Notes: generated by a model from the letters alone, not told the origin. 34,293 nt of DNA from Acidimicrobiales bacterium (GCA_035249805.1 DATFFY010000179.1:1-34293); one strand, 5' to 3'. Shown: positions 6,456 through 27,818, counted from the first letter of the stretch. Numbers and translations: made by a program.

Positions 6456-6472
<17 letters not shown>
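5009..6472 (+). CDS. lipase maturation factor (LMF1/LMF2) family membrane protein
   Basis: 487-aa polytopic ORF with a GTG start. It contains WYGFGWETLLLEAGFLAIF, FRVEFGAGLIKLRGDPCWRDLTCLRYHHETQPMP and SYGAFGSITRVRHEIVLEG, which match the conserved LMF-family blocks as I remember them. Confidence 0.78.
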
Positions 6473-7604
<1,132 letters not shown>

Positions 7605-7616
7605 GAGGACAGTCTC

Positions 7617-9724: not shown

Positions 9725-9731
9725 GGTGGCC

Positions 9732-10808
9732 TCAGCCGTCCCCGATGCGCTTCAGCGTCGCGTTCGCGTCGGCGACGATGCGGTCGAGCAGCTCGGCCAC
9801 GGTCGGCAGCTCGTCGATCACGCCGGTGACCTGGCCGGTCGGCAGGATGCCGACCTCGGGCTTGCCGTCGACCATGGTCGCCTTGATGAGCATGGGCGCG
9901 TTGGCGGCCAGGGCCAGCTGGCTGAGGGTGAGGTCCTGGTTGCGCCGCATCGCCCGGCCCTCCCGCAGGAGGTCGCGCAGCGAGGTGCCGGTCTGCTTGC
10001 GGAACCGCAGCGCGGCGAGCGCGGCGCGCGGGAGGCGCAGCACCCGTGGCGACTTCTCGATGCGGTCGATCACCTCCGTGCGGATGACCCGCTGAGGGGC
10101 ACCGTCGATGGCGGTGGTGACGACCGTGTCGAAGACGGTCGCGGCGGTGTAGCGGTCCTTCACGGCGGCGGGCACGTGGCTCTCCTGCGTCAGGAGGAAG
10201 CGCGTCCCCATGGCGACGCCGTCGGCCCCGTAGGCGATCGCGGCGACGAGGCCGCGGCCGTCGTGGAAGCCACCGGCGCCCAGGACGGGGATCGACGCCC
10301 CGACCGCGTCCACCACCTGCGGGAGCAGCAGCGAGGTGGGGACGGATCCCGTGTGGCCACCGCCCTCGCCACCCTGCGCGATCACCGCGTCGACACCCAT
10401 CTCGAGGACCTTCTCGGCATGGCGGCGGGCGCCGACCGTCGGCATCACGACCACGCCGGCGTCGTGACAGCGGGCCACCGCCTCCTTGGTCGGCGCGCCG
10501 GCGAAGCTCACGAGCCGCACGCCCTCGCCGACGACGAAGGCGACCCGCTCGTCGAGGTCGGGCTGGTCGGCCCGGAAGTTGACGCCGAACGGAGCGTCGG
10601 TGCGCTGCTTCACGCCGCGGACCGCGTCCCGGAGCTGGTCGGGCGCCATCGTCACCGCGGCGAGGATCCCGAAGCCGCCGGCCGCGCTCGTGGCTGCGGT
10701 GAGGTTGGCGCCCGAGACCCATCCCATGCCCGTCTGGACGACCGGCACGCGGCACCCGACGAGGTCGCAGAACCGCGTCCGCAGGGCCGGGTGCAGCGGA
10801 TCTGACAC
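9732..10808 (-). CDS. ipdC: nitronate monooxygenase-family FMN enzyme, IpdC-like
   Basis: 358 aa with a GTG start. It contains VPVVQTGMGWVSG and IAQGGEGGGHTG, the NMO/2-nitropropane dioxygenase motifs. Its size and its neighbourhood with ipdAB-, echA20-, fadE- and fadA-like genes mirror Rv3553 of the M. tuberculosis KstR2 regulon. The symbol is by inference. Confidence 0.8.
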   Translation of the reverse strand: MSDPLHPALRTRFCDLVGCRVPVVQTGMGWVSGANLTAATSAAGGFGILAAVTMAPDQLRDAVRGVKQRTDAPFGVNFRADQPDLDERVAFVVGEGVRLVSFAGAPTKEAVARCHDAGVVVMPTVGARRHAEKVLEMGVDAVIAQGGEGGGHTGSVPTSLLLPQVVDAVGASIPVLGAGGFHDGRGLVAAIAYGADGVAMGTRFLLTQESHVPAAVKDRYTAATVFDTVVTTAIDGAPQRVIRTEVIDRIEKSPRVLRLPRAALAALRFRKQTGTSLRDLLREGRAMRRNQDLTLSQLALAANAPMLIKATMVDGKPEVGILPTGQVTGVIDELPTVAELLDRIVADANATLKRIGDG

Positions 10809-10816
10809 CCCGTCAG
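10802..10816. promoter_or_regulatory. CTGAC-N5-GTCAG palindrome, copy 1
   Basis: CTGACACCCCGTCAG overlaps the GTG start of the ipdC-like gene and sits in the divergent region facing the first MFS gene. Confidence 0.45.
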
Positions 10817-10850
10817 GTTACCGAGGGGCTCCCCGGGGGGCGAACCCGCG

Positions 10851-12269
10851 ATGAGTTCCGGCGACCCCGCCCGTCCCCCTGGCATGACCGCCACCGTGCC
10901 CAGCGAGGCGACCGGGGACCGGACGTTCCACCGGCTCCTGCTCAACACCCTCGTGACCGGCGTGACCGGGTCGTTCGTCTGGTTCGCCCTCACGTTCTGG
11001 GTGTTCCGCGAGACGAGGTCGGTCGTCACGACCGCGGTGGTCGGCGCTTCCTTCAGCCTCTGCAGCGCCGTCCTCGGCCCCGTGTTCGGGACCTACATCG
11101 ATCGGCACCGCAAGCACACGGCGATGCTGCTGTCGACCTCCGCCTCGGTGGCCTGCTACGCCGCGGCGACGACGCTGTTCCTCGCGGTCGACGCCGACCA
11201 GCTCCTCCGGATGCGGGGCCCGTGGTTCTGGGCGCTCGTGGCGACCACGCTCCTCGGATCCGTCGCGGGGTCGATGCGCGGCATCGCCCTCTCGACCTGC
11301 GTCACCCTCCTCGTGCCCGAGGACCGGCGGGACAAGGCGAACGGGCTGGTCGGCTCGGTGACCGGCGTGTCCTTCGCCATCACCTCGGTGTTCAGCGGGC
11401 TCGTGATCGGTCAGCTCGGCATGGGGTGGGCGCTCTACGGGGCCCTCGCGCTGACCGTCGGCGCCCTGCTGCACCTGGCGACGCTGCACATCCCCGAGGC
11501 CGCGCCGACCGCGGCCGAGGGTGCCCCCGGCCCGGTGTTCGACCTGCGGGGCGCGGTCGAGGCGATCCGCGCCGTGCCCGGTCTCCCGATGCTCGTGGGG
11601 CTCGCCGCCTTCAACAACCTCCTCCTGGGGGTGTTCATGGCGCTCATGGACCCGTACGGCCTGTCGCTCGTCTCGGTCGAGACGTGGGGGTTCCTCTGGG
11701 GCGGGATCATGCTGTCGTTCGTCGCCGGCGGTCTGCTGGTGGCCAAGCGCGGCCTCGGGTCGTCACCGGTGCGAGCGGTCGTCGCCGGCAACCTCGTGTG
11801 CTGGGTGACCTCAGCGACGTTCGTGCTCACGTCGTCGCTCGTGCTGCTCGTGGTCGGGCTCGTCCTGTGGCTGCTCGTGATGCCGGTGATCGAGGCCGCC
11901 GAGCAGACCGTGCTGCAGCGCTCCATCCCGTTCGAGAAGCAGGGCCGGGTGTTCGGCTTCGCCCAGATGGTCGAGAACGCGACGGCCCCCGTCACGGCCA
12001 TCTGCATGGGTCCGCTGGCCGAGACGGTGTTCATGCCGTTCATGACCGACGGCAAGGGCGCCGACTGGATCGGAAGCTGGTTCGGGACGGGCCCCGACCG
12101 CGGCATCGCCCTGCTCTTCACCCTTGCCGGCATCGTCGGCGTCCTGGTCACCCTGCTGGTCCGGGCCTCCCGGTCCTACCGCCTCCTCACCGCCGAGGAC
12201 GTCGTGGCGGAGGCACCGGTGGCCCTACCGTGCGCCGAGCCCTGCCCGGCGCTGGCCGCAGCCGCCTGA
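10851..12269 (+). CDS. MFS transporter (DHA3 / MFS_3-like), paralogue 1
   Basis: 472-aa polytopic ORF. It has the DRHRKHTAMLL loop after TM2/3 and IEAAEQTVLQRSIPFEKQGRVFGF in the second half. It is colinear with the next gene. Confidence 0.85.
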   Translation: MSSGDPARPPGMTATVPSEATGDRTFHRLLLNTLVTGVTGSFVWFALTFWVFRETRSVVTTAVVGASFSLCSAVLGPVFGTYIDRHRKHTAMLLSTSASVACYAAATTLFLAVDADQLLRMRGPWFWALVATTLLGSVAGSMRGIALSTCVTLLVPEDRRDKANGLVGSVTGVSFAITSVFSGLVIGQLGMGWALYGALALTVGALLHLATLHIPEAAPTAAEGAPGPVFDLRGAVEAIRAVPGLPMLVGLAAFNNLLLGVFMALMDPYGLSLVSVETWGFLWGGIMLSFVAGGLLVAKRGLGSSPVRAVVAGNLVCWVTSATFVLTSSLVLLVVGLVLWLLVMPVIEAAEQTVLQRSIPFEKQGRVFGFAQMVENATAPVTAICMGPLAETVFMPFMTDGKGADWIGSWFGTGPDRGIALLFTLAGIVGVLVTLLVRASRSYRLLTAEDVVAEAPVALPCAEPCPALAAAA

Positions 12270-12334
12270 CGCTCCTGCCGGCAGACCACAGGCCGAGACG
12301 AAATCCGCCCGATGACCGATGGAGCAACCGCGAG

Positions 12335-13720
12335 ATGCCTAGGTACCGTCCCCCCATCGACAGCGACCTGATGGAGCAGACCGACGAGGCCGCGAAGGCC
12401 CGTGCCTTCCGTGCCCTCCTCGTCAACACCCTCGTGAGCGGCGTGACCGGCACCTTCGTGTGGTTCGCCCTCGTCTTCTGGGCGTACCTCGAGACGCGCT
12501 CGGTGCTGACGACGGCGGTCATCGGGGCGGCCTACAGCCTGGCGATGGCGTTCATCGGCCCGGCCTTCGGCACCTTCGTCGACCGCAACCGAAAGCACAC
12601 GGCCATGCTCCTCGCCACGGCCACCTCGGTGGCGTGCTTCGCCCTCGCCACCGCCCTGTTCGTCCTGATCGATGCCGGCTCGCTGCTCAGCCTCACCGGC
12701 GTGTGGTTCTGGTTGCTCACCGCGCTCGTCCTGGGGGGATCGGTGGCCGGTGCGATGCGAGGCATCGCGCTGTCCACCTGCGTCAGCCTGCTCGTCCCGG
12801 AGGAGCGGCGGGACAGGGCCAACGGGCTCGTCGGCACGGTCAACGGCGTGGCCTTCGCGATCACCTCGGTGTTCAGCGGCATCGTCATCGGCCAGCTGGG
12901 CATGGGCTGGGCCCTCTACCTGTCACTGGGCCTGACCGTCGTGGCGTTCGTGCACCTCGTGGGCATCCGCATCCCCGAGGCCAAGCCGGAGCCGATGGAG
13001 GGCGAGTCCACCTCGCAGTTCGACGTGCGCTCCGCCGTCGACGCCATCAGGGGCGTGCCCGGGCTCCCGGTGCTCATCGCGCTGGCGGCCTTCAACAACA
13101 TGCTCGGCGGCGTCTTCATGGCCCTCATGGACGCCTACGGCCTCGAGCTGGTCTCCGTCGAGACGTGGGGCCTGCTGTGGGGCTTCATCATGCTCGCCTT
13201 CATCGCCGGCGGCATCGCGGTGGCCAAGTTCGGCCTGGGCAGGACACCGGTGAAGCTGATCGTCACCTGCAACCTCGTGAACTGGGTGATCTGCTCGGTG
13301 TTCGCGGTGCAGTCGTCGATCCCGCTCCTCACGATCGGCTGCTTCGTCTGGCTGTTCATGATGCCGGTGATCGAGGCGGCCGAGCAGACCGTGCTGCAGC
13401 GGTCGATCCCCTTCGAGAAGCAGGGTCGGGTGTTCGGCTTCGCCCAGATGGTGGAGAACGCGGCGGCACCGGTCACGTCGATCCTCATGGGCCCGCTGGC
13501 CGCCGAGCTCTTCATCCCGCTGATGACCGACGGCAAGGGCGCCGACTGGATCGGCAGCTGGTGGGGCACGGGCCCCGAGCGGGGCCTGGCCGTCATGTTC
13601 ACGCTGGCCGGCCTCATCGGCCTCGCCGTGACCCTGGTCTTCCGGGCCTCCCGCTCCTACCGCGACCTCACCACGATCCGGGTCGAGGACGAGGCGAGCC
13701 TCGACGTCGCGGCCGCCTGA
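12335..13720 (+). CDS. MFS transporter (DHA3 / MFS_3-like), paralogue 2
   Basis: This is the last 461 codons of the 832-aa track ORF, starting MPRYRPPIDSDLMEQ (alternative ATG at 12371). By eye about two thirds of aligned residues are identical to paralogue 1, with identical blocks such as VIEAAEQTVLQRSIPFEKQGRVFGFAQMVENA and MTDGKGADWIGSW. Confidence 0.85.
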   Translation: MPRYRPPIDSDLMEQTDEAAKARAFRALLVNTLVSGVTGTFVWFALVFWAYLETRSVLTTAVIGAAYSLAMAFIGPAFGTFVDRNRKHTAMLLATATSVACFALATALFVLIDAGSLLSLTGVWFWLLTALVLGGSVAGAMRGIALSTCVSLLVPEERRDRANGLVGTVNGVAFAITSVFSGIVIGQLGMGWALYLSLGLTVVAFVHLVGIRIPEAKPEPMEGESTSQFDVRSAVDAIRGVPGLPVLIALAAFNNMLGGVFMALMDAYGLELVSVETWGLLWGFIMLAFIAGGIAVAKFGLGRTPVKLIVTCNLVNWVICSVFAVQSSIPLLTIGCFVWLFMMPVIEAAEQTVLQRSIPFEKQGRVFGFAQMVENAAAPVTSILMGPLAAELFIPLMTDGKGADWIGSWWGTGPERGLAVMFTLAGLIGLAVTLVFRASRSYRDLTTIRVEDEASLDVAAA

Positions 13721-13749
13721 TCCGGCGCCGGCGTCCGTAGCCTGCCCCC

Positions 13750-15165
13750 ATGCACATGGGGACCGCGCAGGGCCGCTGGGTCCTGCTGGCCACGGTCCTC
13801 GGCTCGGGGGTCGCCTTCCTCGACGGCACCGTCGTCAACGTCGCGCTCCCGGCGATCGCCGAGGACCTCGACACCGACCTGGCGGGGCTGCAGTGGGTGC
13901 TCGACGCCTACCTGGTCACCCTCACCGCCCTGGTCCTCCTCGGCGGGTCGCTCGGCGACCGCTACGGCCGGCGCATGGTGTTCCTGGCCGGGCTGGCCGG
14001 CTTCACCGCGGCATCGGTGCTGTGCGGGCTGGCGCCGAACGTCGAGGTGCTCATCCTCGCCCGGGCGGCCCAGGGCGTCGGCGCCGCGCTGCTCGTGCCC
14101 GGGAGCCTCGCCATCCTCTCGGCCGTGTTCCACCCGGACGACCGGGCGAAGGCGGTCGGGGCGTGGTCCGGCCTCGGTGGCGTGGCCACGGCGATCGGCC
14201 CCTTCGTCGGCGGCTGGCTCATCGACAGCGTGTCCTGGCGGCTCGCGTTCTTCGTCAACGTGCCGCTGGCTGCGCTCGTGGTCCTCGCCGCCCGCCACGT
14301 GCCCGAGACGAGGAGCGACGCCGGCGAGCACCTCGACCTCCCCGGCGCCGTCACCGCGTCGGCCGGCCTCGCCCTGCTGACCTACGGGCTGATCGAGCAG
14401 ACCGCCGTGGCGACGGTGTCCGGGCTCGGCGTGCTGGGCGCCTTCGTCGTGCTGGAGGCTCGCAGCCCGAACCCGATGCTGCCCCTCGCCCTGTTCCGGG
14501 ACCGCCAGTTCAGCGGGGCCAACGCGATGACCCTGGCCGTGTACGCGGCGCTGAGCGGCGCGTTCTTCCTCGTGGTCGTCGAGCTCCAGACGGTCCTCGG
14601 GTACTCCGCCCTCGAGGCCGGCGCCGCGCTCGTGCCCGTGACGCTCCTCATGCTCGTGCTCTCGGCGCGGGCCGGCGAGCTGGCCCAGCGCATCGGTCCC
14701 CGCCTGCCGATGTCGCTCGGTCCGATCGGCGTGGCGGCCGGACTGCTGCTGTGGACCCGCGTCGATGCCGGCGCGTCGTACGTCGAGGGTGTGCTGCCGG
14801 GGGCGATCGTGTTCGGGCTCGGGCTGTCGCTCACCGTGGCTCCGTTGACGGCGACGATCATGGCCTCGGCCGACGACGGCCACCTCGGCGCGGCATCCGG
14901 GGTGAACAACGCCGTCGCCCGCCTGGCCGGCCTGCTCGCGGTGGCGCTGCTGCCGGCCGTCGTGGGGCTCGACACCGCCGGCCCCGCTGCGGACCTCGAC
15001 GGCGGCGTCGACGACGCGCTCGTCGTCGCGGCCGGCCTCTCGGTCGCCGGTGGGCTGATCGCGCTCGCCACGGTGCAGCGGCTCCGCCGGGTCACCCCGC
15101 ACGCGCAGCCGTCGCTGGCCCATCCCTGCGGTCACCCGTGCCTCGAGGAGGAAGCCGCCGCCTGA
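13750..15165 (+). CDS. MFS transporter, DHA2 (EmrB/QacA-type, 14-TMS) family
   Basis: 471 aa. FLDGTVVNVALPAIAEDL, LGGSLGDRYGRR and WRLAFFVNVPL are the hallmark DHA2 motifs. Confidence 0.88.
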   Translation: MHMGTAQGRWVLLATVLGSGVAFLDGTVVNVALPAIAEDLDTDLAGLQWVLDAYLVTLTALVLLGGSLGDRYGRRMVFLAGLAGFTAASVLCGLAPNVEVLILARAAQGVGAALLVPGSLAILSAVFHPDDRAKAVGAWSGLGGVATAIGPFVGGWLIDSVSWRLAFFVNVPLAALVVLAARHVPETRSDAGEHLDLPGAVTASAGLALLTYGLIEQTAVATVSGLGVLGAFVVLEARSPNPMLPLALFRDRQFSGANAMTLAVYAALSGAFFLVVVELQTVLGYSALEAGAALVPVTLLMLVLSARAGELAQRIGPRLPMSLGPIGVAAGLLLWTRVDAGASYVEGVLPGAIVFGLGLSLTVAPLTATIMASADDGHLGAASGVNNAVARLAGLLAVALLPAVVGLDTAGPAADLDGGVDDALVVAAGLSVAGGLIALATVQRLRRVTPHAQPSLAHPCGHPCLEEEAAA

Positions 15166-15166
15166 C

Positions 15167-15220
15167 CCGAACTCGCGACGCCTCGCACACAGAACTGTGT
15201 GCGAGGCGTCGCGAGTTCGG
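15167..15220. terminator. bidirectional terminator, 54-nt perfect palindrome
   Basis: CCGAACTCGCGACGCCTCGCACACAG-AA-CTGTGTGCGAGGCGTCGCGAGTTCGG lies exactly between the stops of two convergent genes (15165 plus strand, 15224 minus strand). Confidence 0.8.
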
Positions 15221-15223
15221 CGG

Positions 15224-16000
15224 TTAGTCGGGGACCTCTTGGAGGCGGGCGCCGGCGGGGTCGATCACCGTGCCGATGAGCTCGAGCTCGTCCGGCGTGG
15301 GCAGCCGGGACGTCGGCACGTCATCGGGCACGGCGAGCTCGAACCCCGTGGCGGCCCGCACCTCGTCGACCGTGACGCCGGGGTGGACCGACCGCAGGCG
15401 CATCGTGCGCTCGGGCGTCTCGAAGTCCAGGACGGCGAGGTTCGTCACGACTCGGCGGATCTCGTGGAAGCGCGCCGCCTCCGGACCCAGGGCGGCGGCG
15501 CGGTCGTAGCCGACGCCGCAGACCGTGTCGACGGCGGGGACGAACACCGAGGGCGAGTGGTTCGGCACCCAGTACGAGGTGACGTCGTTGATCGTGTTGC
15601 CCGGCGCGCCGCGGTAGCCGAGGAGCTGCACCTTGGGGTGCCGGTAGTCGCCGATGGCGGCGAAGTTCTGGTTGCCGAACCGGTCGATCTGGGAGCCGCC
15701 CATGATCACGTGGCGGCGGCCGTTCCAGACCCAGGTGAACATCTGCCGGTAGGGGTTGAAGTGCTCCACGACCTTGCCGTCGGGCCACGTGAAGGCGCCG
15801 TCGTTGGCGATGAGCCGGGCCTCGCCGTCGGTCATGGCGAGGTCGGGCTCGAACGTGGCCCGGGCGAGACGCCCGCCGATCATCGGGATCGTCCCGATCG
15901 GGTTGCACAGGAGCTCGCCGTCGCCGCGGAAGCACTCCGCGATCGCGACGACGCACACGTCGGCCCGCGCCACGAGGTCGGCCAGCCGGTCCTCGGCCAT
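15224..16000 (-). CDS. ipdB: CoA-transferase family subunit B, IpdB-like
   Basis: 258 codons starting MAEDRLADLVARADVCVVAIAECFRGDGELL; the rest of the track ORF is a shadow. The ATG overlaps the TGA of the upstream subunit by 1 nt. Order and sizes match echA20-ipdA-ipdB (Rv3550-3552). Confidence 0.8.
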   Translation of the reverse strand: MAEDRLADLVARADVCVVAIAECFRGDGELLCNPIGTIPMIGGRLARATFEPDLAMTDGEARLIANDGAFTWPDGKVVEHFNPYRQMFTWVWNGRRHVIMGGSQIDRFGNQNFAAIGDYRHPKVQLLGYRGAPGNTINDVTSYWVPNHSPSVFVPAVDTVCGVGYDRAAALGPEAARFHEIRRVVTNLAVLDFETPERTMRLRSVHPGVTVDEVRAATGFELAVPDDVPTSRLPTPDELELIGTVIDPAGARLQEVPD

Positions 16001-16875
16001 CAGCCGGCTCCTCCGTCGCGGCGGAGCCTGGCCTGGTAGTCGGCCTCGCTCAGGTCGAGCCACGTGGCCCGGAACTCGGCCCACGCCTCGGGCGACTTCG
16101 CCGACGCGGCGTACTGCTTCTGGAAGGCCTCGTCGCGGGGGTAGTCCGGGTCGCACGACGTGAAGTGCGCGCCGTTCGGGGCCTCGATGACGCCGTCGAC
16201 GTGCAGCCGGCTGATGAGCAGCGACTGCGGCGGCCCCTCCTCGGCGAGCTGCTCGGTGGGGACGATCCGCTCGGTCGACAGGTAGCGCTGCACGGCGGCG
16301 CCGAGGAACAGGTCGTCCATGTAGGGGTCCGGCCCGAGGTACTGCCCGTTGCCGCGGGCGTCGGCCCGGTTCATGTGGACGAACGCGGCGTCCATCGTCA
16401 GCGCAGGCACGGCGACGAGCTCCTCGGCGTCGGCGAACGGGGAGGTGACCATCCGCACCCGGTCGTTGTCGCGCAGGATGTCCGACCCCAGCCCCACCCG
16501 TGTCGGGAGGAACGGGACCCGCCACGCGGCGGCCTGGAGGCCGAGCAGGAACATGCCCTCGTCGTACGGCTCGTCCTCGACGGCACCGGCCTGGCGCGCG
16601 GCGCGGAAGTGCGGCTCGAGCGGGATCGAGTCGAGCGACACGAACGCGTAGACGATGCGCTTGACCTTCCCCGCCGCGCAGAGGATGCCGACGTCCGGGC
16701 CGCCCCAGCTCACCACCGTGAGGTCGGTGAGGTCCGAGCGCAGGATCGCCCGCACCACCGACATCGGCTTGCGGCGCGAGCCCCAGCCCCCGAAGCCGAT
16801 GGTCATGCCCGACCGCAGCTGGGCGACGGCCTCGTCCTCGGTGAGCCGCTTGTCCTTGGGTTGGGCCGTGCTCAC
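16000..16875 (-). CDS. ipdA: CoA-transferase family subunit A, IpdA-like
   Basis: 291 codons from GTG (VSTAQPKDKRLTEDEAVAQLRSGMTIGFGGWGSRRKPMSVVRAILRSDLTDLTVV). There is a GTGA overlap with the echA stop. The GWGSRRKPM block is as I recall it from IpdA. Confidence 0.8.
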   Translation of the reverse strand: MSTAQPKDKRLTEDEAVAQLRSGMTIGFGGWGSRRKPMSVVRAILRSDLTDLTVVSWGGPDVGILCAAGKVKRIVYAFVSLDSIPLEPHFRAARQAGAVEDEPYDEGMFLLGLQAAAWRVPFLPTRVGLGSDILRDNDRVRMVTSPFADAEELVAVPALTMDAAFVHMNRADARGNGQYLGPDPYMDDLFLGAAVQRYLSTERIVPTEQLAEEGPPQSLLISRLHVDGVIEAPNGAHFTSCDPDYPRDEAFQKQYAASAKSPEAWAEFRATWLDLSEADYQARLRRDGGAG

Positions 16876-17633
16876 TTCGACGTGTCTGTCCCGCGCTTGT
16901 CGACGAAGGCGTCGCGGTGCTCGTCCGCCACGCCGGACAGGTTGAGCTCGAACGTGAATCCCTGCTCGTAGCGGTACGACCGCTTCACGTCCCACAGGTC
17001 GATCCCGTTGAGCGACTCCTTGGCCGCCCGGATCACCGTCGGTGACTTGGCCGCGATCTGGCCGGCGACCGCCATCGCCGCGTCCCGCAGCGCAGCGGAC
17101 GGCACGACCTGGAGGACCGAGCCGAACTCGTGCAGCTCGGCGGCGGTCGCGGTGGCCGACGTGTAGACCATCGCCCGCATCTTGTGCTGGGGCACCAGGC
17201 GGGACAGGTGGGTCGCCGCGCCGAGGGCGCCCCGGTCCACCTCGGGGAGCCCGAAGGTGGCGTCCTCCGCCGCGATCACGATGTCGGCGTTGCCGGCGAG
17301 GCCGATGCCCCCGCCCAGGCAGAAGCCGTTCACCGCCGCGATCACCGGCACGGCGCACTCGTAGACGGCGGCGAAGGCGGCGAAGCAGCCCCGGTTCGCG
17401 CCGATCAGCGCCTCGAACCCCTCGGTGGCCTGCATCTCCTTGATGTCGACGCCGGCGTTGAACCCGCGGCCCTCCGCCCGCAGCACGATCACACGCACCT
17501 GCGGGTCGCGGCCCAGCGCGGTGATCACGTCGGCCAGCTCGAACCAGCCCGCGACCGTCAGCGCGTTGACCGGCGGGTTGTCCATCACGACCTCGGCGAT
17601 GCCGTCGTCGTGGACCTGGTGGCTGATGCCCAT
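16872..17633 (-). CDS. echA20: enoyl-CoA hydratase/isomerase (crotonase) family, EchA20-like by synteny
   Basis: 253 aa. It shows crotonase oxyanion-hole blocks (RGFNAGVDIKEM, AAVNGFCLGGGIGLAGNADI). It is the first gene of the echA-ipdA-ipdB unit. Confidence 0.8.
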   Translation of the reverse strand: MGISHQVHDDGIAEVVMDNPPVNALTVAGWFELADVITALGRDPQVRVIVLRAEGRGFNAGVDIKEMQATEGFEALIGANRGCFAAFAAVYECAVPVIAAVNGFCLGGGIGLAGNADIVIAAEDATFGLPEVDRGALGAATHLSRLVPQHKMRAMVYTSATATAAELHEFGSVLQVVPSAALRDAAMAVAGQIAAKSPTVIRAAKESLNGIDLWDVKRSYRYEQGFTFELNLSGVADEHRDAFVDKRGTDTSK

Positions 17634-17656
17634 GCGTGACGTCCCCGGAGTCGGTT

Positions 17657-17671
17657 CTGACGGCCCGTCAG
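17657..17671. promoter_or_regulatory. CTGAC-N5-GTCAG palindrome, copy 2
   Basis: CTGACGGCCCGTCAG lies 24-38 nt upstream of the echA20-like ATG (17633). Confidence 0.45.
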
Positions 17672-17681
17672 GAACCTAGCA

Positions 17682-17717
17682 ACGACGAGGCCCCGGCCGG
17701 AGCCGGGGCCTCGTCGT
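17682..17717 (-). terminator. GC-rich hairpin downstream of hppA
   Basis: ACGACGAGGCCCCGGC-CGGA-GCCGGGGCCTCGTCGT has a 16-bp stem and lies 13 nt after the hppA stop. There is no clear U-tract, which is common in high-GC actinobacteria. Confidence 0.55.
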
Positions 17718-17730
17718 CAGCTCCTTCGGA

Positions 17731-20309
<2,579 letters not shown>

Positions 20310-20313
<4 letters not shown>

Positions 20314-21044
20314 GCTTGCTTCCCTTGGGTCGTGGGGGCGGCGTTGGCCCCACTGGTTGGTGCCGTGCGATCGCCGTTGCGGGTCTCGCGACGAGTGACG
20401 TAGATCTGACGGGCGACCCGCTCGCCGAGCGTGCGGTCCTGCCCGTTGACGGTCACCACGAGGGGGCCGTCGAAGGGGTGCTTCTCGACCACCTCGACCT
20501 CCACGCCCGGGACCAGGCCCAGGGTGCCGAGGAAGGTGACGAGGTCTGGGTCGGTGGAGCCGGAGAGCGCGACCTCCGCCACGTCGCCGGGCTCGAGCAT
20601 GTAGAGGTCCGGGGTGACCGGCAGCTCGCCGTCCTCGGCGGTGGGGATCGGGAACCCGTGCGGGCACGTCGCCGGCCGGTGGAGGGCCACGTAGAGGCGC
20701 TCGAGCACCTCGTCGGGGAGCTCGTGCTCGAACCCGACGGCGAGCTTGTCCGCCTCGTTCCACTTGTAGCCGAGCATGTCGGCGAGGAAGCGCTCGACGA
20801 TGCGGTGCCGGCGGATGGCCGCGACGGCGGTCTTCTGGCCCTCGGGGGTGAAGCTGACGCCCTGGTAGGGCCGGTGGTCGACCAGGCTCCGGTCGGCCAG
20901 GCGCTTGACCATCGTGGTGACGGTGCCGGGAGACAGCCCGAGGACGTCCGCGAGCGCGCCGGTGTGCGCCTCCGAGCCATCTCGGGTGAGGCGGTAGATG
21001 GCCTTCAGGGCCTCGCGCTCGGACTTCGTGAGGGAATCGTCCAC
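20310..21044 (-). CDS. DtxR/IdeR/MntR-family metal-dependent transcriptional regulator with FeoA/SH3-like C-terminal domain
   Basis: 244 codons from GTG (VDDSLTKSEREALKAIYRLTRDG...). It has a winged HTH (LADVLGLSPGTVTTMVKRL), a metal/dimerisation helix (RRHRIVERFLADML...GFEHEL) and a FeoA-like tail. The stop overlaps the hppA ATG (ATGA at 20310-20313). An alternative GTG lies 17 codons upstream. Confidence 0.83.
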
Positions 21045-21130
21045 GGTTCGATCTTTGGAGCCCCGAAATCCTGGCTTTGTCCCAGGCACGTTCGAAGCGC
21101 GCTCATCCCACCAGACCGGCGCCTTCACCG

Positions 21131-21169
21131 CAAAACGGCGGACGCCGGCCCCTCTCGGAGCCGGCGTCC
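21131..21169 (-). terminator. intrinsic terminator after the lipoprotein gene
   Basis: On the minus strand, GGACGCCGGC-(10-nt loop)-GCCGGCGTCC is followed by GCCGUUUUGCGG. Confidence 0.75.
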
Positions 21170-21190
21170 TGACGCTCTGTCGTCGAGCCG

Positions 21191-22204: not shown

Positions 22205-22291
22205 GCATCCCCTCCGGTGAATGGGCGCTCCCCGCCGCGCCTCGTGGTGTTGGTCGCGGACCCTAGACCCTGTGCCAGACTCGTGACGGAT

Positions 22292-22306
22292 CTGACACAC
22301 CGTCAG
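22292..22306. promoter_or_regulatory. CTGAC-N5-GTCAG palindrome, copy 3
   Basis: (T)CTGACACACCGTCAG(A) lies immediately 5' of the AGGAG Shine-Dalgarno, 11-25 nt upstream of the DUF35 ATG (22317). Confidence 0.45.
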
Positions 22307-22316
22307 AAGGAGTGCG

Positions 22317-22748
22317 ATGACCACGCCCGTACCGGCCGTCGACGGCTGGTTCACCACCGACGAGGAACCGCACCTCCTCGGGACGCGCTGCACGTCGTGC
22401 GGCACCGTCTTCTTCCCCCGAGCCGCCGGCTTCTGCCGCAACCCGGGCTGCCGCGGCCGCGACTTCGAGGAGGCCGCGCTGTCCCGCACGGGCACGGTCT
22501 GGAGCTACACCGACGCGCAGTACCAACCGCCGCCGCCCTACATCCCGCCCGGCGACGAGCACGTGCCGTTCGCGCTGGCCGCCGTCGAGCTCGCCGCTGA
22601 GCAGCTCGTGGTGCTCGGGCAGGTGGCCGACGGCTACGGCGTCGGTGATCTGTCGGTCGGGGCGCCGGTCGAGCTCGTCGTCGAGCCGCTGTACGAGGTC
22701 GACGGCGTGCCCCACCTCATCTACCGCTGGAAGCCGGTGGCACAGTGA
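22317..22748 (+). CDS. Zn-ribbon / OB-fold (DUF35) protein
   Basis: 143 aa. It has a CxxC...CxxxxC ribbon (CTSCGTVFFPRAAGFCRNPGC) followed by an OB-fold segment. There is a GTGA overlap with the downstream thiolase-like gene. Confidence 0.85.
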   Translation: MTTPVPAVDGWFTTDEEPHLLGTRCTSCGTVFFPRAAGFCRNPGCRGRDFEEAALSRTGTVWSYTDAQYQPPPPYIPPGDEHVPFALAAVELAAEQLVVLGQVADGYGVGDLSVGAPVELVVEPLYEVDGVPHLIYRWKPVAQ

Positions 22749-23941
22749 CGGCGCCTGCTGCGATCGCGGTCGCCGGGGTCGGCATGCACGAGTGGGGGAA
22801 GTGGGGTCGCCCCTTCCACGAGTACGGCATCGAGGCCGCGCTCCGAGCCCTCGACGACGCGGGCATCGGCTGGGACGAGGTGCAGTTCGTCGCCGGGGGC
22901 GAGACCGTCCGCAACGGCTACCCGGGCTGGGTGGCCGCGTCCACCCTGACGCAGGCGCTCGGCTGGAACGGCGCGCGCGTGGCGTCGTCCTACGCCGCCT
23001 GTGCGTCGGGCGTGACGGCCCTCGACGCCGCGCGATCGAGGATCCTCGCCGGCCTGTGCGACGTCGCCCTCGTCGTCGGCGCGGACACCACGCCGAAGGG
23101 CTTCCTGGCCCCGGTGGCGGGGGAGCGGTGGGACGACCCGGACTGGCTGCGCTTCCGCCTGCTCGGCGCCACCAACCCGACCTACTTCGCGCTCTACGCC
23201 CGCCGGCGGGTCGACCTGTACGGGGCCACCGACGCGGACTTCGCCAAGGTGAAGGTGAAGAACGCGCGGCACGGCCTGCACAACCCGTACGCGCGCTACC
23301 GCAAGGAGGTCACGGAAGAGGAGGTGCTGGGCAGCCCGATGGTGGCCGACCCGCTCCGCCTGCTCGAGATCTGCGCGACGTCCGACGGCGCCGCGGCCGT
23401 GGTGCTCACCTCGATGGACTACGCGAAGCGCAAGGGCCTCACCGCGCCGGTGCGCATCCGGGCCGTGTCGACCGTGACGCCCCGCTTCCCGAACACCGTC
23501 ATCGAGATGCCGAACTTCGCCACGGACTCGGCCGCCGCGCTGGCCCCGCCCGAGCTCACCTTCCGCGACTCGATCGCCGCGGCCGCCTACGACGAGGCCG
23601 GTCTCGGTCCCGAGGACCTCGGCCTCGCCGAGGTCTACGACCTGTCGACCGCCCTCGAGCTCGACTGGTACGAGAACATCGGCCTCTGCAAGCCGGGTGA
23701 GGCCGAGCGCCTCCTCAACGACGGCGACACGTGGATCGGCGGCCGCATCCCGGTGAACCCCAGCGGCGGGCTGGCCTGCTTCGGCGAGGCCGTGCCGGCC
23801 CAGGCCATCGCACAGGTCTGCGAGGTCACGTGGCAGCTCCGCGGCCAGGCCGAGGGCCGCCAGGTCGACGGCGCCAAGGTCGGCCTCACGGTCAACCAGG
23901 GCCTCTTCGGCCACGGCAGCTGCGTCATCCTCTCTGTCTAA
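22745..23941 (+). CDS. SCP2/Ltp-type thiolase-like protein
   Basis: 398 aa with a GTG start. It is thiolase-fold (SSYAACASGVTAL, NPSGGLACFGEAVPAQ), of the nonspecific lipid-transfer / Ltp type that partners DUF35 proteins. Confidence 0.87.
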   Translation: MTAPAAIAVAGVGMHEWGKWGRPFHEYGIEAALRALDDAGIGWDEVQFVAGGETVRNGYPGWVAASTLTQALGWNGARVASSYAACASGVTALDAARSRILAGLCDVALVVGADTTPKGFLAPVAGERWDDPDWLRFRLLGATNPTYFALYARRRVDLYGATDADFAKVKVKNARHGLHNPYARYRKEVTEEEVLGSPMVADPLRLLEICATSDGAAAVVLTSMDYAKRKGLTAPVRIRAVSTVTPRFPNTVIEMPNFATDSAAALAPPELTFRDSIAAAAYDEAGLGPEDLGLAEVYDLSTALELDWYENIGLCKPGEAERLLNDGDTWIGGRIPVNPSGGLACFGEAVPAQAIAQVCEVTWQLRGQAEGRQVDGAKVGLTVNQGLFGHGSCVILSV

Positions 23942-23946
23942 GTGCC

Positions 23947-23967
23947 GAGGGGGGCTGCGCCCCCCCT
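23947..23967 (+). terminator. GC hairpin after the thiolase-like gene
   Basis: GAGGGGGGC-TGC-GCCCCCCTC lies 6 nt after the TAA. No T-tract. Confidence 0.55.
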
Positions 23968-24036
23968 CAGCGAGACCCCCATCGCCGACACGCAGCGACG
24001 GCGAGCCCCCTGTCGGACCAGCCCGCGCTGCGTCGG

Positions 24037-24534
24037 TCAGCTCTCCTGTTCTTCGAGCAGTCGGCGCAACGTGGGCAGCGTCAGCTGGTCCTTCGGCCGA
24101 TCCGCCGCGGCCTTCGAGCGGATGACGTCGGCCAGCGACGCCACCTCGACGACGACGCCGAGCACCTCGTCCAGGATCGCGTCCCGATGGAGGTCGTCGT
24201 AGCCGTGCGTGCCGGCAGGCAAGATGGTGAGATCGAGGTCGCCATGCGGCGTTCGCAGGTTCCACACGGTGGCCCTGGCGAGCGACGCGGCGTCGTGGGC
24301 GAACTCGACGTCCTCGTCTCCTGCACGCACCCGGGCCCCGATCGAGCGCAACGCGTCCGACAACCTCTCCAGGTTGGCGGCGCTCATCTCCGGCGTGATG
24401 TCGAGGTCGAAGGTCAGATGCGCAGAGCCGTGGTAGATCGCCGCGAACCCGCCGACGACGACGAACCTCACCTCGTGCTCGGACAACGCTCGGAGCATCG
24501 CCTCCGGGTCGAACGCTGGACTGGTGTCGCTCAT
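24037..24534 (-). CDS. minimal nucleotidyltransferase-fold (Pol-beta superfamily) protein
   Basis: 165 codons from MSDTSPAFDPEAML. It has an NTase signature, GG-x13-DLD (VVGGFAAIYHGSAHLTFDLDI), a second acidic motif HGDLDL, and a C-terminal DVIRSKAAADRPKD. The ATG overlaps the stop of the HTH gene (ATGA). Confidence 0.7.
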   Translation of the reverse strand: MSDTSPAFDPEAMLRALSEHEVRFVVVGGFAAIYHGSAHLTFDLDITPEMSAANLERLSDALRSIGARVRAGDEDVEFAHDAASLARATVWNLRTPHGDLDLTILPAGTHGYDDLHRDAILDEVLGVVVEVASLADVIRSKAAADRPKDQLTLPTLRRLLEEQES

Positions 24535-24866
24535 CCGGCGCGCACCCGTCTGCGACGCCTCTCGCCTGCCTGCCTGAAGCCCTCGGCCAAGCGGATCGCA
24601 CCGAGCGACCGCCGCACCCGCTCCTCCGCCGGGAGCTCGGCGTTGGCCTTCACCTGTCCCCACTCCTCGGCGTCGAACGGGACGAGGCGGAGGTGGATGT
24701 CGAACCCGCAGGCCTGCGCCACCTCGGACAGCCGCGCGAGGGTGGGGGAGCCGTGGCGTTCGATGCGGGCGATGGCCGATTGGGTGGTCCCGAGCCGCTC
24801 GGCCAGCTCCGTCTGGGACAAGCCCGCCCGGCGGCGGACCTCGCGGATGAGGTGGTTGCCTCGCAT
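24531..24866 (-). CDS. XRE-family helix-turn-helix protein
   Basis: 111 aa. IREVRRRAGLSQTELAERLGTTQSAIARIERHG is a canonical Cro/C1 HTH. It lies upstream of, and overlaps, the NTase gene. Confidence 0.85.
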   Translation of the reverse strand: MRGNHLIREVRRRAGLSQTELAERLGTTQSAIARIERHGSPTLARLSEVAQACGFDIHLRLVPFDAEEWGQVKANAELPAEERVRRSLGAIRLAEGFRQAGERRRRRVRAG

Positions 24867-24875
24867 GCAGCCAGC

Positions 24876-24908
24876 ATAGCGCGATCGCTATGATAGCGAC
24901 AGCGCTAT
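24876..24908. promoter_or_regulatory. tandem operators ATAGCG-N4-CGCTAT x2
   Basis: ATAGCGCGATCGCTAT (24876-24891) and ATAGCGACAGCGCTAT (24893-24908) are 1 nt apart and lie 10-42 nt upstream of the XRE ATG, in the divergent region facing the VOC gene. Confidence 0.55.
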
Positions 24909-24944
24909 GTTCCCGAACGACCGGGGTTTTGGCAGGCTGGGGGC

Positions 24945-25337
24945 GTGCCCGTGCAGCTGAACCACACGATCGTCCACGCTCGTGACGCGGCGGCCTCCGC
25001 CGCGTTCCTCTCCGAGATCCTCGGCGTCGAGGCGCCCGGTCGGTTCGGGCCCTTCCACGTGGTCGAGGTCGCCAACGGGGTGTCCCTCGACTACATGGAC
25101 ACGCCCGAGCCGCACCCGGTGGGAGGTCAGCACTACGCCTTCCTCGTCACCGAGCCCGAGTTCGACGAGATCTTCGGGCGCATCCAGGAGCGCGGGCTCG
25201 ACGTCTACGCCGACCCCGCCGGTGAGCTGAAGGGCCAGGTCAACCACAACGACGGCGGCCGGGGCCTGTACTGGTCCGACCCCGACGGCCACTGGCTCGA
25301 GATCCTCACCGTCCCGTACGGGGGATGGCCGGCGTGA
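24945..25337 (+). CDS. VOC (glyoxalase/bleomycin-resistance/dioxygenase) family protein
   Basis: 130 aa with a GTG start. LNHTIVHARDAAASAAFLSEILG ... HYAFLV ... LYWSDPDGHWLEI is the typical VOC beta-alpha-beta-beta-beta pattern. Confidence 0.83.
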   Translation: MPVQLNHTIVHARDAAASAAFLSEILGVEAPGRFGPFHVVEVANGVSLDYMDTPEPHPVGGQHYAFLVTEPEFDEIFGRIQERGLDVYADPAGELKGQVNHNDGGRGLYWSDPDGHWLEILTVPYGGWPA

Positions 25338-25343
25338 GGTCGG

Positions 25344-25802
25344 CTAGGCCAACCAGCGGCTGAGCGACTCGACCACGCACGCGGGCTTGGCCCCGCCCTC
25401 CACCTCGATCGTGATCGTGATGGTCGTCTGCACGCCGCCGGGGATCTCCTCGACGGCGGCGATCTCGGCGCCGCCGCGGATGCGGCTGCCGACCGGCACC
25501 GGCGCGGGGAACCGGACCTTGCCGGTCCCGTAGTTCACGCCGGCCGACGCGGCGGGCACCTGGAGCAGCTCGGGCAGGAAGCGGTTCGACAGCGCCAGCG
25601 TGAGGAAGCCGTGCGCGATCGGGCCGCCGAAGGGGCTCTCGGCCGTCGCCCGCTCGGCGTCGACGTGGATCCACTGGTGGTCGCCGGTGGCGTCGGCGAA
25701 GAGGTTGACGCGCGCCTGTTCGACCTCCATCCAGTCGGTCCACCCGAGGTGCGTGCCCGCCGCGCCGCGCAGCTCGTCGAGCGTCTCGAAGACGGTGGCC
25801 AT
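25344..25802 (-). CDS. MaoC-like (R)-specific enoyl-CoA hydratase / hotdog dehydratase
   Basis: 152 codons from MATVFETLDELRG. FADATGDHQWIHVDAERA...GGPIAHGFL is the MaoC hydratase motif. There is a 1-nt overlap with the SDR stop. Confidence 0.88.
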   Translation of the reverse strand: MATVFETLDELRGAAGTHLGWTDWMEVEQARVNLFADATGDHQWIHVDAERATAESPFGGPIAHGFLTLALSNRFLPELLQVPAASAGVNYGTGKVRFPAPVPVGSRIRGGAEIAAVEEIPGGVQTTITITIEVEGGAKPACVVESLSRWLA

Positions 25803-26581
25803 CAGGCTCGCTGCGAGGACACGGACACGACCTCGCCGGTCATGTAGGTCGAGTAGTCGCTGGCCAGGAACGCGATCACGGTCGCGATCTCCCATGGCTC
25901 CGCGGCGCGTCCGAAGGCCTCGCGCTGCGTGAGCTCGTCGAGCAGCTCGTCGGTGGTGACCTTCGCGAGGAACGCGTGCATCGCCAGCGACGGCGCGACC
26001 GCGTTCACGCGCACGCCGTGCGGCGCCGCCTCGATCGCGGCCGAGCGGGTGAGCGCCATCACGCCCGCCTTCGCGGCCGCGTAGTGGGCCTGCCCGGCCT
26101 GCGCCCGCCAGCCCAGGACCGACGCGTTGTTGACGATGACGCCGCTGGCCTGCCGGTACATCTGGCGCAGCGCGGCACGGGTCATGCGGAACGTGCCGGT
26201 GAGGGTGATGTCGATGACCCTGTCCCACTGCTCGTCGGTCATCTCGACGATGTCGGCGGTGCCGCCCAGCCCGGCGTTGTTCACGAGCACGTCGACCCGG
26301 CCGTGCTCGGCGACGGTGCCGTCCACCAGCGCCTGCACCTGTCCCTCGACGGTGACGTCGCACGGCAGCGCGAGCGGGCGCCCGCCGGCCAGCTCGGCCA
26401 GCTCATCGGCCGCCTCCCCGAGACGGCGCTCGTGCGCGTCGCTGAGGACGACGGTGGCGCCCTCCTCGATGCAGCGCCGGGCCGTCGCGTTGCCGATGCC
26501 GGTCCCCGCCGCGGCCGTGACGAGCACGACCTTGCCGGCCAGGAGGTCCCGCCCGGACGGCGGCGAAGGGACAGTGGTCAC
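25802..26581 (-). CDS. short-chain dehydrogenase/reductase (3-hydroxyacyl-CoA dehydrogenase-like)
   Basis: 259 codons from GTG. It has TAAAGTGIG (Rossmann), NNAG and YAAAK catalytic motifs. There is a GTGA overlap with the ACAD stop. Confidence 0.9.
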   Translation of the reverse strand: MTTVPSPPSGRDLLAGKVVLVTAAAGTGIGNATARRCIEEGATVVLSDAHERRLGEAADELAELAGGRPLALPCDVTVEGQVQALVDGTVAEHGRVDVLVNNAGLGGTADIVEMTDEQWDRVIDITLTGTFRMTRAALRQMYRQASGVIVNNASVLGWRAQAGQAHYAAAKAGVMALTRSAAIEAAPHGVRVNAVAPSLAMHAFLAKVTTDELLDELTQREAFGRAAEPWEIATVIAFLASDYSTYMTGEVVSVSSQRA

Positions 26582-27771
26582 GTGGAGTCCTTGGGGAGGC
26601 CGAGGGCGCGCTCGCCGATGATGTTGCGCTGGATCTGGTTGGTGCCGGCGTAGATCGTGTCGCTGCGGCTGAAGAGGAACAAGCGCTGCAGCCGGCTGTA
26701 GTCCGGCGAGCCGTCCGGGAAGGTGGCCGTCCGGAGGGTGGCCTCGGCGCCGAGGACGTCCATGGCGAGCTCGCCGAGGTCCCGGTGGACCGTGGCCCAG
26801 AAGAGCTTCGTGACCATCGCGGCGGGTGACGCCTCGGGCGACGACGACATGATCCGCATGGCGTTCAGGCGCATCAGCCGGAGGCGCACCCACGTGTCGA
26901 CGAGGCGCTGCCGGATCACCGGGTCCTGCACGCGGCCGTTGTCGCGGGCTCGGGCCAGGATCTCGTCCCACTCGTTGAGGAACATGAGGTTCTGCCCGAG
27001 CGTCGAGGCGCCCCGCTCGAACCCGAGCGTGCCCATCGCGACGCGCCAGCCGCCGTCCACGTCGCCGACGACGTGCTCGGCCGCGGTGCGGGCGCCCGAG
27101 AAGAAGACCTCGTTGAACTCCGAATCGCCGGTGACCTGGTGGATCGGACGGATCTCGACGCCGTCCTGCCGCATCGGGACGAGCAGGTACGAGATGCCCT
27201 TGTGCTTCGGCGCGTCGCGGTTGGTGCGGGCCAGCACGAAGCACCAGTCGGCCCAGTGGGCCTGGCTCGTCCAGACCTTCTGGCCCTCGATCACCCACTC
27301 GTCACCATCGAGCTCGGCCTTCGTCTGGATCGACGCGAGGTCCGAGCCCGCTCCCGGCTCGCTGTAGCCCTGGCACCAGAGCTCGGTGCCGGCCACGATC
27401 CCCGGAAGGAAGCGGGCCCGCTGCTCGTCGGTGCCGAACGTGATCAGCGTGGGGCCGAGCAGCGTCTCGCCGATGTGCCCGATGCGACCTGGCGCCCGGG
27501 CCCGCGCGTACTCCTCGAAGTAGACGACCTGCTGGTGGAGCGACAGGCCACGGCCGCCGTGCTCCTTCGGCCACGCCACGCAGGTCCACCCGTGCGCGCC
27601 GAGGTGGCGCTCCCAGGCGAGCCGCTCCTCGAAGAGGCAGTCGTCGTCGCCGGGCCCCCCGCGGCCGCGCACGACGGCGAAGTCGCCGCGGAGGCCGTCC
27701 TCGAGGAAGGTGCGGACCTCGTCTCGGAAGGCCTCGTCCTCGGCCGAGAATCTCAGGTCCATCCGCGGCAC
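26578..27771 (-). CDS. acyl-CoA dehydrogenase
   Basis: 397 aa from GTG 27771; an alternative ATG at 27762 gives MDLRFSAEDEAF, parallel to the ACAD at 9724. It has GYSEPGAGSDLAS and IYAGTNQIQRNIIGERALGLP. Confidence 0.88.
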   Translation of the reverse strand: MPRMDLRFSAEDEAFRDEVRTFLEDGLRGDFAVVRGRGGPGDDDCLFEERLAWERHLGAHGWTCVAWPKEHGGRGLSLHQQVVYFEEYARARAPGRIGHIGETLLGPTLITFGTDEQRARFLPGIVAGTELWCQGYSEPGAGSDLASIQTKAELDGDEWVIEGQKVWTSQAHWADWCFVLARTNRDAPKHKGISYLLVPMRQDGVEIRPIHQVTGDSEFNEVFFSGARTAAEHVVGDVDGGWRVAMGTLGFERGASTLGQNLMFLNEWDEILARARDNGRVQDPVIRQRLVDTWVRLRLMRLNAMRIMSSSPEASPAAMVTKLFWATVHRDLGELAMDVLGAEATLRTATFPDGSPDYSRLQRLFLFSRSDTIYAGTNQIQRNIIGERALGLPKDST

Positions 27772-27784
27772 CGTACCGCTGGAC

Positions 27785-27799
27785 CTGACGGGCCGTCAG
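27785..27799. promoter_or_regulatory. CTGAC-N5-GTCAG palindrome, copy 4
   Basis: CTGACGGGCCGTCAG is the exact reverse complement of copy 2. It lies 14-28 nt upstream of the ACAD start. Confidence 0.45.
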
Positions 27800-27818
27800 A
27801 TCTTCTCGAGCGCTCCGC

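Follow-up and report, generated by a model that had tools for sequence, protein, structure and literature searches.

We describe a palindromic DNA motif, with the core CTGAC-N5-GTCAG, in a stretch of 34,293 nucleotides from an Acidimicrobiales bacterium (GCA_035249805.1, DATFFY010000179.1:1-34293; this whole stretch is referred to as the window), where four exact copies stand at the starts of four operons for steroid- and acyl-CoA-type catabolism. We propose, with a probability that we put at roughly 0.7, that these sites are operators of a dimeric helix-turn-helix (HTH) repressor controlling the catabolism of methylhexahydroindanedione propionate (HIP; steroid rings C and D) and related acyl-CoA compounds, that the repressor is likely a TetR-family protein, here called TetR-A, and that this system takes the place of KstR2 (Rv3557c), the regulator of the HIP ring C-D regulon in Mycobacterium and Rhodococcus.

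Four exact palindromes at operon starts

The initial annotation of the window had reported four exact copies of CTGAC-N5-GTCAG and judged them non-random, and both statements hold. The copies start at positions 10802, 17657, 22292 and 27785; dinucleotide-preserving shuffles of the window, which is 72% G+C, contained a mean of 0.05 exact copies, and none of 100 shuffles contained four or more. When up to two mismatches were allowed there was no excess (14 matches in the window against 24 expected), so the signal is confined to the exact class. On alignment of the four sites the likeness ends beyond about 19 bp, and hence they are not copies of a longer repeat. Site 1 (10800-10818, core 10802-10816, CTGACACCCCGTCAG, reading CTGACGGGGTGTCAG on the minus strand) and site 3 (22290-22308, core 22292-22306, CTGACACACCGTCAG) are exact matches, and site 2 (17655-17673, core 17657-17671, CTGACGGCCCGTCAG) and site 4 (27783-27801, core 27785-27799, CTGACGGGCCGTCAG) form perfect 7-1-7 palindromes, CTGACGG-N-CCGTCAG. 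The consensus of 65 pooled sites is (A/T)(T/C)CTGACG-N3-CGTCAG(A/G)(T/A), a 19-bp palindrome in which the A/T-T/C positions flanking the stem are palindromically conserved as well. The extent first given to the motif is thus right for the core, which is exact in all four sites, but too short for the family as a whole, where the palindrome spans about 19 bp.

Each site lies within a few tens of nucleotides of a start codon. Site 1 holds the GTG (10808-10806, minus strand) of a nitronate monooxygenase (NMO)/IpdC-like gene, in a divergent region with the ipdC operon on one side and three major facilitator superfamily (MFS) transporter genes on the other. Site 2 is placed 24-38 nt upstream of the echA20 ATG (17633), just past a terminator-like hairpin (about 17684-17715) of a H+-translocating pyrophosphatase (H+-PPase) gene. 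Site 3 falls in a 112-bp divergent gap, with a secreted-protein gene (likely ATG 22204) on one side and a DUF35-ltp gene pair on the other, and directly adjoins the AAGGAG Shine-Dalgarno sequence of the DUF35 gene (ATG 22317). These contexts agree with those given in the initial annotation, as does that of site 4, ahead of an ACAD-SDR-MaoC unit. For site 4 a distance of 14-28 nt from its acyl-CoA dehydrogenase (ACAD) gene had been stated; the ACAD start more likely lies at ATG 27762 (MDLRFSAEDEAF...), which places the site 23-37 nt upstream.

Conservation in related loci

As a reference we used 80 loci anchored on IpdA, one genome per species and 1.25 Mb in total, in which the closest relatives by IpdA (84-91% identity) are metagenome-assembled genomes (MAGs) of Acidimicrobiales/Microthrixaceae. 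The 80 loci contain 61 further exact copies, all in Acidimicrobiia-type loci, and none in the Streptomyces, Saccharopolyspora, Geodermatophilus or Myxococcota loci of the set; over all related loci, 71 further exact sites were found beyond the window. The further sites lie 0-70 nt upstream of orthologues of EchA20, IpdC, DUF35, both ACAD types, MaoC, short-chain dehydrogenase/reductase (SDR), FadA6 and Amidohydro_2, and fadD3 orthologues are also among the genes with the motif upstream. Retention upstream of orthologous operons had been named beforehand as a check on the regulatory reading, and it is seen down to about 50-60% protein identity.

The same result is obtained without searching for the pattern. 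In a footprint of the 90 nt upstream of every EchA20 orthologue, chosen by position, the motif was recovered with 0-2 mismatches at 20-35 nt in about 40 Acidimicrobiia loci. Among IpdC orthologues, only those whose gene is the first of its own operon have the motif, and the GTG then always lies within it; the same site with the GTG at offset +1 occurs in L001 and L003-L009, where ipdC is the operon head. Sites precede the DUF35 orthologues in at least 15 loci, and orthologues of the operon-4 ACAD in L008, L030, L032 and L069 and in the metagenome loci L116, L131, L142 and L145. A similar density of the motif within coding regions would have spoken against the regulatory reading; of the 73 exact sites that could be tested, not one is intragenic, compared with 49% of random positions (p about 5e-22). 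Conservation and the avoidance of coding sequence together support the initial proposal of an undescribed operator distinct from the KstR and KstR2 boxes.

Variant and unrelated sequences were seen at some corresponding positions. In three lower-GC Acidimicrobiales loci (L028, L035 and L048) the sequence upstream of echA20 reads CATCTGACGATTGGCAGGTCACC, in which the left half-site is whole and the right is degenerate, and this may be a drifting or half-site form of the operator. In deltaproteobacterial/Polyangiales MAGs a different palindrome, TGAAACGCGTTTCA, lies upstream of the echA20 orthologues (L025, position 9176; L036, position 105), and it appears that in these proteobacterial lineages the same genes are served by yet another operator. 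L005 (about 11700-12130, minus strand) and L007 (5513-5980, minus strand) encode, divergently from their ipdC site, small proteins with repeated GAQW-E---RWE-WD motifs, and homologues of these proteins occur in seven loci.

Overlap with promoter-like sequences

A hexamer TANNNT ending between -3 and +2 of the first motif base is found at 30 of 103 gene-oriented sites, compared with 0.2% at random, and is nearly absent elsewhere in the 30 nt upstream of the motif. At site 1 we read a -10-like hexamer TAACCT (10815-10820, minus strand) that overlaps the first two bases of the site. The GTG of ipdC begins 6 nt after this hexamer, and TAAyCT is kept at the ipdC sites of relatives; from this spacing the ipdC mRNA is predicted to be leaderless, and its first codon would probably lie inside the operator. 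That the start codon falls here also accounts for the ipdC sites reading GTGTCAG instead of CCGTCAG. At site 2 a putative -10 hexamer TAGGTT (17673-17678, minus strand) stands 1 nt upstream of the site, and TAGGTT or TAGTTT is kept at the same place in L002, L003, L005-L007 and L009-L011. A scan for E. coli-type sigma-70 promoters returned none and is uninformative at 72% GC. The motif thus has the form of a TetR-type operator, a palindrome of about 15-20 bp that overlaps the promoter or transcription start, and its sequence, placement and conservation indicate that the sites are very probably transcription-factor operators at promoters.

Relation to the KstR2 and KstR regulons

The KstR2 box, AnCAAGnnCTTGnT, is placed between divergent genes at 22-82 bp from their starts (PMC3068626), and the consensus given in the initial annotation is the published one. 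The window has no match to this box or to its CAAGnnCTTG core. The strict box is present in 14 of the 80 reference loci and never together with the new motif. The 38 loci that bear the new motif, counted with one mismatch allowed in it, contain neither a strict box nor a KstR2 homologue (defined by BLASTP at E<1e-20 against the TetR of L047, which matches the KstR2 structures PDB 2IBD/4W97 at E about 1e-61); KstR2 homologues were found only in the motif-free loci L015, L027, L047 and L064. This mutual exclusivity with both box and gene indicates that the new operator holds the KstR2 niche in Acidimicrobiia.

The two systems share their targets (echA20-ipdAB, ipdC, ACADs of the fadE30-33 type, fadA6 and fadD3), the use of short palindromic operators that are intergenic, often divergent and a few tens of bp from gene starts, and a TetR-family regulator. 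KstR2 is autoregulated and encoded in the cluster, and the same would hold for the candidate regulator, to judge from its place in relatives. The presence of the motif at the promoters of echA20-ipdAB, the ipdC/fadE/fadA6 operon and fadD3 is to be read as functional analogy and not as membership in the KstR2 regulon. They differ in the operator, since the 14-bp CAAG-NN-CTTG and the 19-bp CTGACG-N3-CGTCAG are unrelated in sequence; in the regulator, the candidate here having a TetR_C_38 ligand domain and being no KstR2 orthologue; in breadth, since the new regulon also takes in DUF35-ltp, ACAD-SDR-MaoC, Amidohydro_2, cytochrome P450 and aldehyde dehydrogenase genes; and in lineage, Mycobacteriales for KstR2 and Acidimicrobiia for the new motif.

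KstR (Rv3574) regulates upper steroid and side-chain catabolism through the operator TnnAACnnGTTnnA, which is matched by none of the four sites. It resembles the system described here in placing a TetR-type palindrome before lipid and steroid catabolic genes, and the ltp/DUF35, MaoC hydratase, SDR and ACAD targets of the new motif resemble KstR-regulon functions. The operator sequence is different, however, and a KstR-type box stands before other genes of the same window. This box, TAGAACCTGTTCTA at 2341-2354, is a perfect 6-2-6 palindrome and the sole match to TnnAACnnGTTnnA in the window (0.02 expected); it lies in the 24-bp gap between divergent Amidohydro_3 (577-2340, minus strand) and Amidohydro_2 (2365-3552, plus strand) genes. 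The Amidohydro_3/Amidohydro_2 genes at 577-4962 have the KstR-type box in front and not the new motif. KstR-like boxes also occur beside the new motif in L083, L084, L085, L112 and L198. Since the two are separate and coexist, they mark two distinct regulons, and on these sequence matches a KstR-like regulon has probably been retained alongside the new motif.

Other known systems offer further comparisons. In regulators of the FadR/YsiA and PaaR type, a TetR dimer sits on a promoter-overlapping palindrome of beta-oxidation-type operons and is released by a CoA thioester. Bacillus FadR/YsiA and Thermus FadR and PaaR differ from the present case in operator consensus and protein subfamily, so the analogy is one of mechanism only. 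The inner part of the motif, TGAC-N5-GTCA, also fits the very degenerate Streptomyces BldD box, TNAC-N5-GTNA; the extra conserved positions of the motif do not follow that box, and we set this resemblance aside. BldD is a developmental regulator of a different order.

TetR-A as candidate regulator

An iterated hidden Markov model search for TetR HTH domains across the loci identified TetR-A, a protein composed of TetR_N (PF00440) and TetR_C_38 (PF19352), with EthR (3e-6) as its best match in PDB. It has 3335 homologues at E<1e-10, of which those listed with a taxon name belong to Acidimicrobiia. In relatives its gene lies in or beside the HIP cluster, where the motif heads the TetR-A operon wherever this could be tested (L012, L017, L041, L082, L083, L084, L085 and L086/L087); with L125, L188 and L200 this makes about 11 independent contexts. 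TetR-A is frequently translationally coupled to the preceding gene and would then have no promoter of its own. The operon often includes fadD3, and the co-operonic ligases pass the FadD3-family equivalog cut-off; FadD3 makes HIP-CoA, the effector of KstR2. The recognition region, V(I/V)DIAR-AG-SPATFYQYF, does not vary among 14 TetR-A proteins with identities as low as 38%, and their arginine-rich N-terminal arm is strongly conserved. An invariant recognition segment fits an invariant operator.

A complementary scan began from the motif, with metagenome contigs searched for the full 19-bp consensus. It yielded 120 loci, 102 of them high-GC and 78 with homologues of regulon genes. TetR-A was the sole recurrent regulator (6 of the 120 loci) and contributed three new motif-headed operons (those of L125, L188 and L200); neither KstR2 nor the second TetR protein considered below, TetR-B, was found in these 120 loci. 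Clustering of all unlabelled open reading frames in motif-bearing loci revealed no other shared regulator. Taking this linkage together, we favour TetR-A, on balance, as the cognate factor.

Several other DNA-binding proteins were considered and rejected. TetR-B (L049 and L075) has an AT-rich inverted repeat of its own directly before its start and is a member of the regulon. The repeat is shared by both loci (GGACTTCC-N9-GGAAGTCC-like; L049 about 17150-17200, L075 about 19735-19765) and is probably the TetR-B operator. In L075 TetR-B is followed by a P450 gene, and the CTGAC motif stands about 20 nt upstream of the repeat, an arrangement that suggests a regulator nested inside the regulon. 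L085 encodes a second TetR (6171-6959), which is unrelated and is immediately preceded, in the stretch 6130-6170, by a TTGAACGTCGTTCAA palindrome of its own; in the same intergenic region a CTGACGGTGTGTCAG site lies 67 nt before the start of this second TetR, so that two operator types occur side by side. The XRE gene of the window (24531-24866) recurs only in L008 and looks to be of the antitoxin or 'mobile mystery protein A' type. The DtxR-family gene (20310 to about 21000) adjoins the DUF35 site in L003 and L008 and not in L004 or L005; it shares synteny with the H+-PPase gene and belongs to a family of metal regulators.

Genes of the window

Genes were called from GC1/GC2/GC3 frame bias and annotated with Pfam and NCBIfam. 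Target operon 1 (6456-10808, minus strand) is headed by the ipdC-like NMO gene (9732-10808), followed on the same strand by two ACAD genes (8570-9724 and 7617-8570) and a FadA6-type thiolase gene (6456-7604). The thiolase passes its NCBIfam equivalog cut-off; the best match of the second ACAD is the sub-threshold one to IpdE2 (113 bits against a cut-off of 450, NCBIfam), and the IpdC-like protein is supported solely as a member of the NMO family. Divergent from ipdC are the three tandem MFS genes (10851-15165, plus strand; Pfam). In L001 and L004, too, an orthologue of the third is transcribed away from the ipdC site. Shared control by site 1 is probable for the three genes, which are candidates for the transport of the regulon's substrates.

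Target operon 2 (15224-17633, minus strand) comprises echA20 (16872-17633), ipdA (16000-16875) and ipdB (15224-16000). IpdA matches the IpdAB structures PDB 6CO6/6CON at E about 1e-105, and EchA20 passes its NCBIfam equivalog cut-off. In target operon 3 (22317-23941, plus strand; Pfam) the gene of an OB-fold protein of the DUF35/ChsH2-like kind (22317-22748) is followed by that of a thiolase of the Ltp/SCP-x type (22745-23941), which scores 694 bits with the NCBIfam lipid-transfer protein model PRK06059, whose cut-off is 424. Target operon 4 (25344-27762, minus strand; Pfam and NCBIfam) consists of ACAD (26578-27762), SDR (25802-26590) and MaoC-type hydratase (25344-25820) genes. The window thus holds orthologues of IpdAB, EchA20, IpdC, IpdE-type ACADs and FadA6, the HIP cluster, and the identity of the pathway as HIP (steroid ring C/D) degradation is well supported by these protein matches. 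The gene fadD3 is absent from the window, which suggests that a fadD3/TetR-A operon lies elsewhere in this genome. As the initial annotation had noted, no TetR, IclR or GntR gene is annotated by Pfam in the window; its other DNA-binding proteins are DtxR-family, XRE/antitoxin-like and CsoR-like.

Between the echA20 and DUF35 operons (17731-21000, minus strand) lie the H+-translocating pyrophosphatase gene and that of a DtxR/MntR-like regulator with a FeoA domain. L003, L004, L005 and L008 share this synteny; next to echA20 most other Acidimicrobiia have a divergent SDR gene instead. Site 4 is just beyond the 3' end of a gene for a CsoR/RcnR-type metal-sensing repressor (27819-28103, minus strand; PF02583, E 5e-30), itself directly upstream of a heavy-metal P-type ATPase gene (28118-30547, minus strand), a copper-efflux-type pair unrelated to the motif. 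The XRE HTH protein (antitoxin or 'mobile mystery protein A' like) is encoded with an overlapping 167-aa partner that has no Pfam hit (24037-24866, minus strand). The pair is found 3' of MaoC on the same strand in L008, and could represent a toxin-antitoxin or mobile module that was inserted next to the ACAD-SDR-MaoC operon.

Discussion

The mechanism we envisage is as follows. The operator would begin at or just after the -10 hexamer and cover the transcription start, so that bound repressor would block RNA polymerase; at ipdC it would also cover the start codon of the probably leaderless mRNA. TetR-A, transcribed from a motif-bearing promoter and often together with fadD3, would be autoregulated, and in the present genome its operon with fadD3 would lie outside the window. 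By analogy with KstR2 and from the geometry of the sites, we infer that the repressor could be released by a CoA thioester of the pathway, HIP-CoA for example. Repression and the binding of TetR-A are likewise conjectured from the arrangement of the sites and the linkage of the TetR-A gene to them.

Four other explanations were weighed against this mechanism. That the copies arose by chance, or belong to a dispersed repeat of the type of repetitive extragenic palindromes or miniature inverted-repeat transposable elements and have no regulatory role, could draw on the short length of the core and on nothing else; it is refuted by the shuffled sequences, by flanks that cannot be aligned past about 19 bp, and by sites kept at orthologous positions across a class and never in coding sequence. 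The initial annotation had offered as an alternative that the palindrome acts as a stem-loop in the 5' untranslated region, modulating translation or mRNA stability. The arms can indeed pair, in a stem of 5-7 bp with a loop of 1-5 nt, sites 2-4 follow the likely promoter and precede the start codon, and site 3 adjoins a Shine-Dalgarno sequence. Yet a comparison of 37 orthologous sites upstream of echA20 revealed no compensatory change at any of the six pairs. Pairs 8-20, 9-19 and 10-18 never vary, pair 7-21 is constant in all but one site (36 of 37), and in 19 of the 37 an uncompensated G-to-A change disrupts pair 11-17. Shuffled sequences fold as stably as the four window sites do (z from -0.7 to +0.5), the motif serves genes of either strand in divergent regions, the ipdC site holds the start codon of a probably leaderless mRNA, and the conserved A/T-T/C positions lie outside the stem. 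Sequence is conserved and pairing is not, which argues for a protein-binding DNA site and makes an RNA element highly improbable. A KstR2 orthologue with drifted DNA specificity would account for the target genes and for a geometry like that of the divergent boxes 20-80 bp from gene starts (PMC3068626). It is nevertheless very unlikely to bind here, since the motif-bearing loci have no KstR2 homologue, whereas in lineages with the KstR2 box the gene sits in the cluster; TetR-A retrieves no KstR2 structure at E<=1e-3; and the half-sites, CTGACG and nCAAG, are dissimilar.

It is also conceivable, if unlikely, that the operator is genuine and that another factor binds it, of the TetR or some other family and encoded elsewhere, with TetR-A a downstream member of the regulon in a cascade. 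The points that speak for such an arrangement also weigh on our own proposal. The main one is that TetR-A is found neither in the window nor within ±10 kb of ipdA in the closest relatives, L001-L011, and its presence in this genome is inferred. A motif-bearing promoter shows that TetR-A belongs to the regulon and not that it binds the motif; TetR-B in L075 is likewise preceded by the motif and yet has a distinct palindrome of its own, as does the second TetR of L085, so that adjacency is no proof. In addition, the -10 assignments depend on the minimal criterion TANNNT, and the window showed none of the upper-pathway steroid genes kshA, hsaA-D and kstD, so that the pathway may have a natural substrate other than a steroid. 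Against a cascade, no regulator other than TetR-A accompanies the motif repeatedly, as it does both in its motif-headed operons and in the motif-first loci; in L082 and L084 it is coupled to the preceding gene and has no promoter or palindrome of its own, its recognition helix is as invariant as the operator, and it lies next to fadD3 and the HIP cluster, where kstR2 would sit. We therefore retain TetR-A as the candidate repressor.

The regulon may reach further than the four operons. Other motif-adjacent genes in the metagenome loci encode P450, aldehyde dehydrogenase, family-III CoA-transferase, luciferase-like monooxygenase (LLM) oxidoreductase and DUF35 fusions, which makes the regulon broader than the 15-gene KstR2 regulon, and it overlaps KstR-type functions. 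A more speculative proposition, to which we give little weight, is that this operator and a TetR_C_38 repressor define one large Acidimicrobiia regulon merging the roles of KstR and KstR2. Were it true, the regulon would add Amidohydro_2, an isochorismatase-like hydrolase, an F420-type LLM oxidoreductase and a family-III CoA-transferase, functions not known from steroid catabolism, and would imply an undescribed variant of ring C/D degradation or a non-steroid substrate with a HIP-like core. The fusion of the operator to the leaderless GTG at ipdC would then couple repression to the first codon.

A literature search returned nothing relevant on the motif string, on steroid or KstR2 regulation in Acidimicrobiia, or on TetR_C_38/PF19352. 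The operator, the candidate regulator and the replacement of KstR2 thus appear to be new, while the mechanism, a TetR repressor acting at a palindrome that overlaps the promoter, belongs to an ordinary class. If our proposal is correct, Acidimicrobiia would offer a case of non-orthologous replacement in which regulator and operator have both been exchanged and the enzyme set kept, and TetR_C_38 would gain a first candidate function and operator. The co-regulated genes that have no assigned role (Amidohydro_2, isochorismatase-like, LLM and MFS) become candidates for new steps or transporters. In soil, freshwater and activated sludge the Acidimicrobiia are abundant and for the most part uncultured, and CTGACG-N3-CGTCAG would serve as a sequence key with which their steroid-ring and acyl-CoA regulon may be mapped directly from metagenomes.

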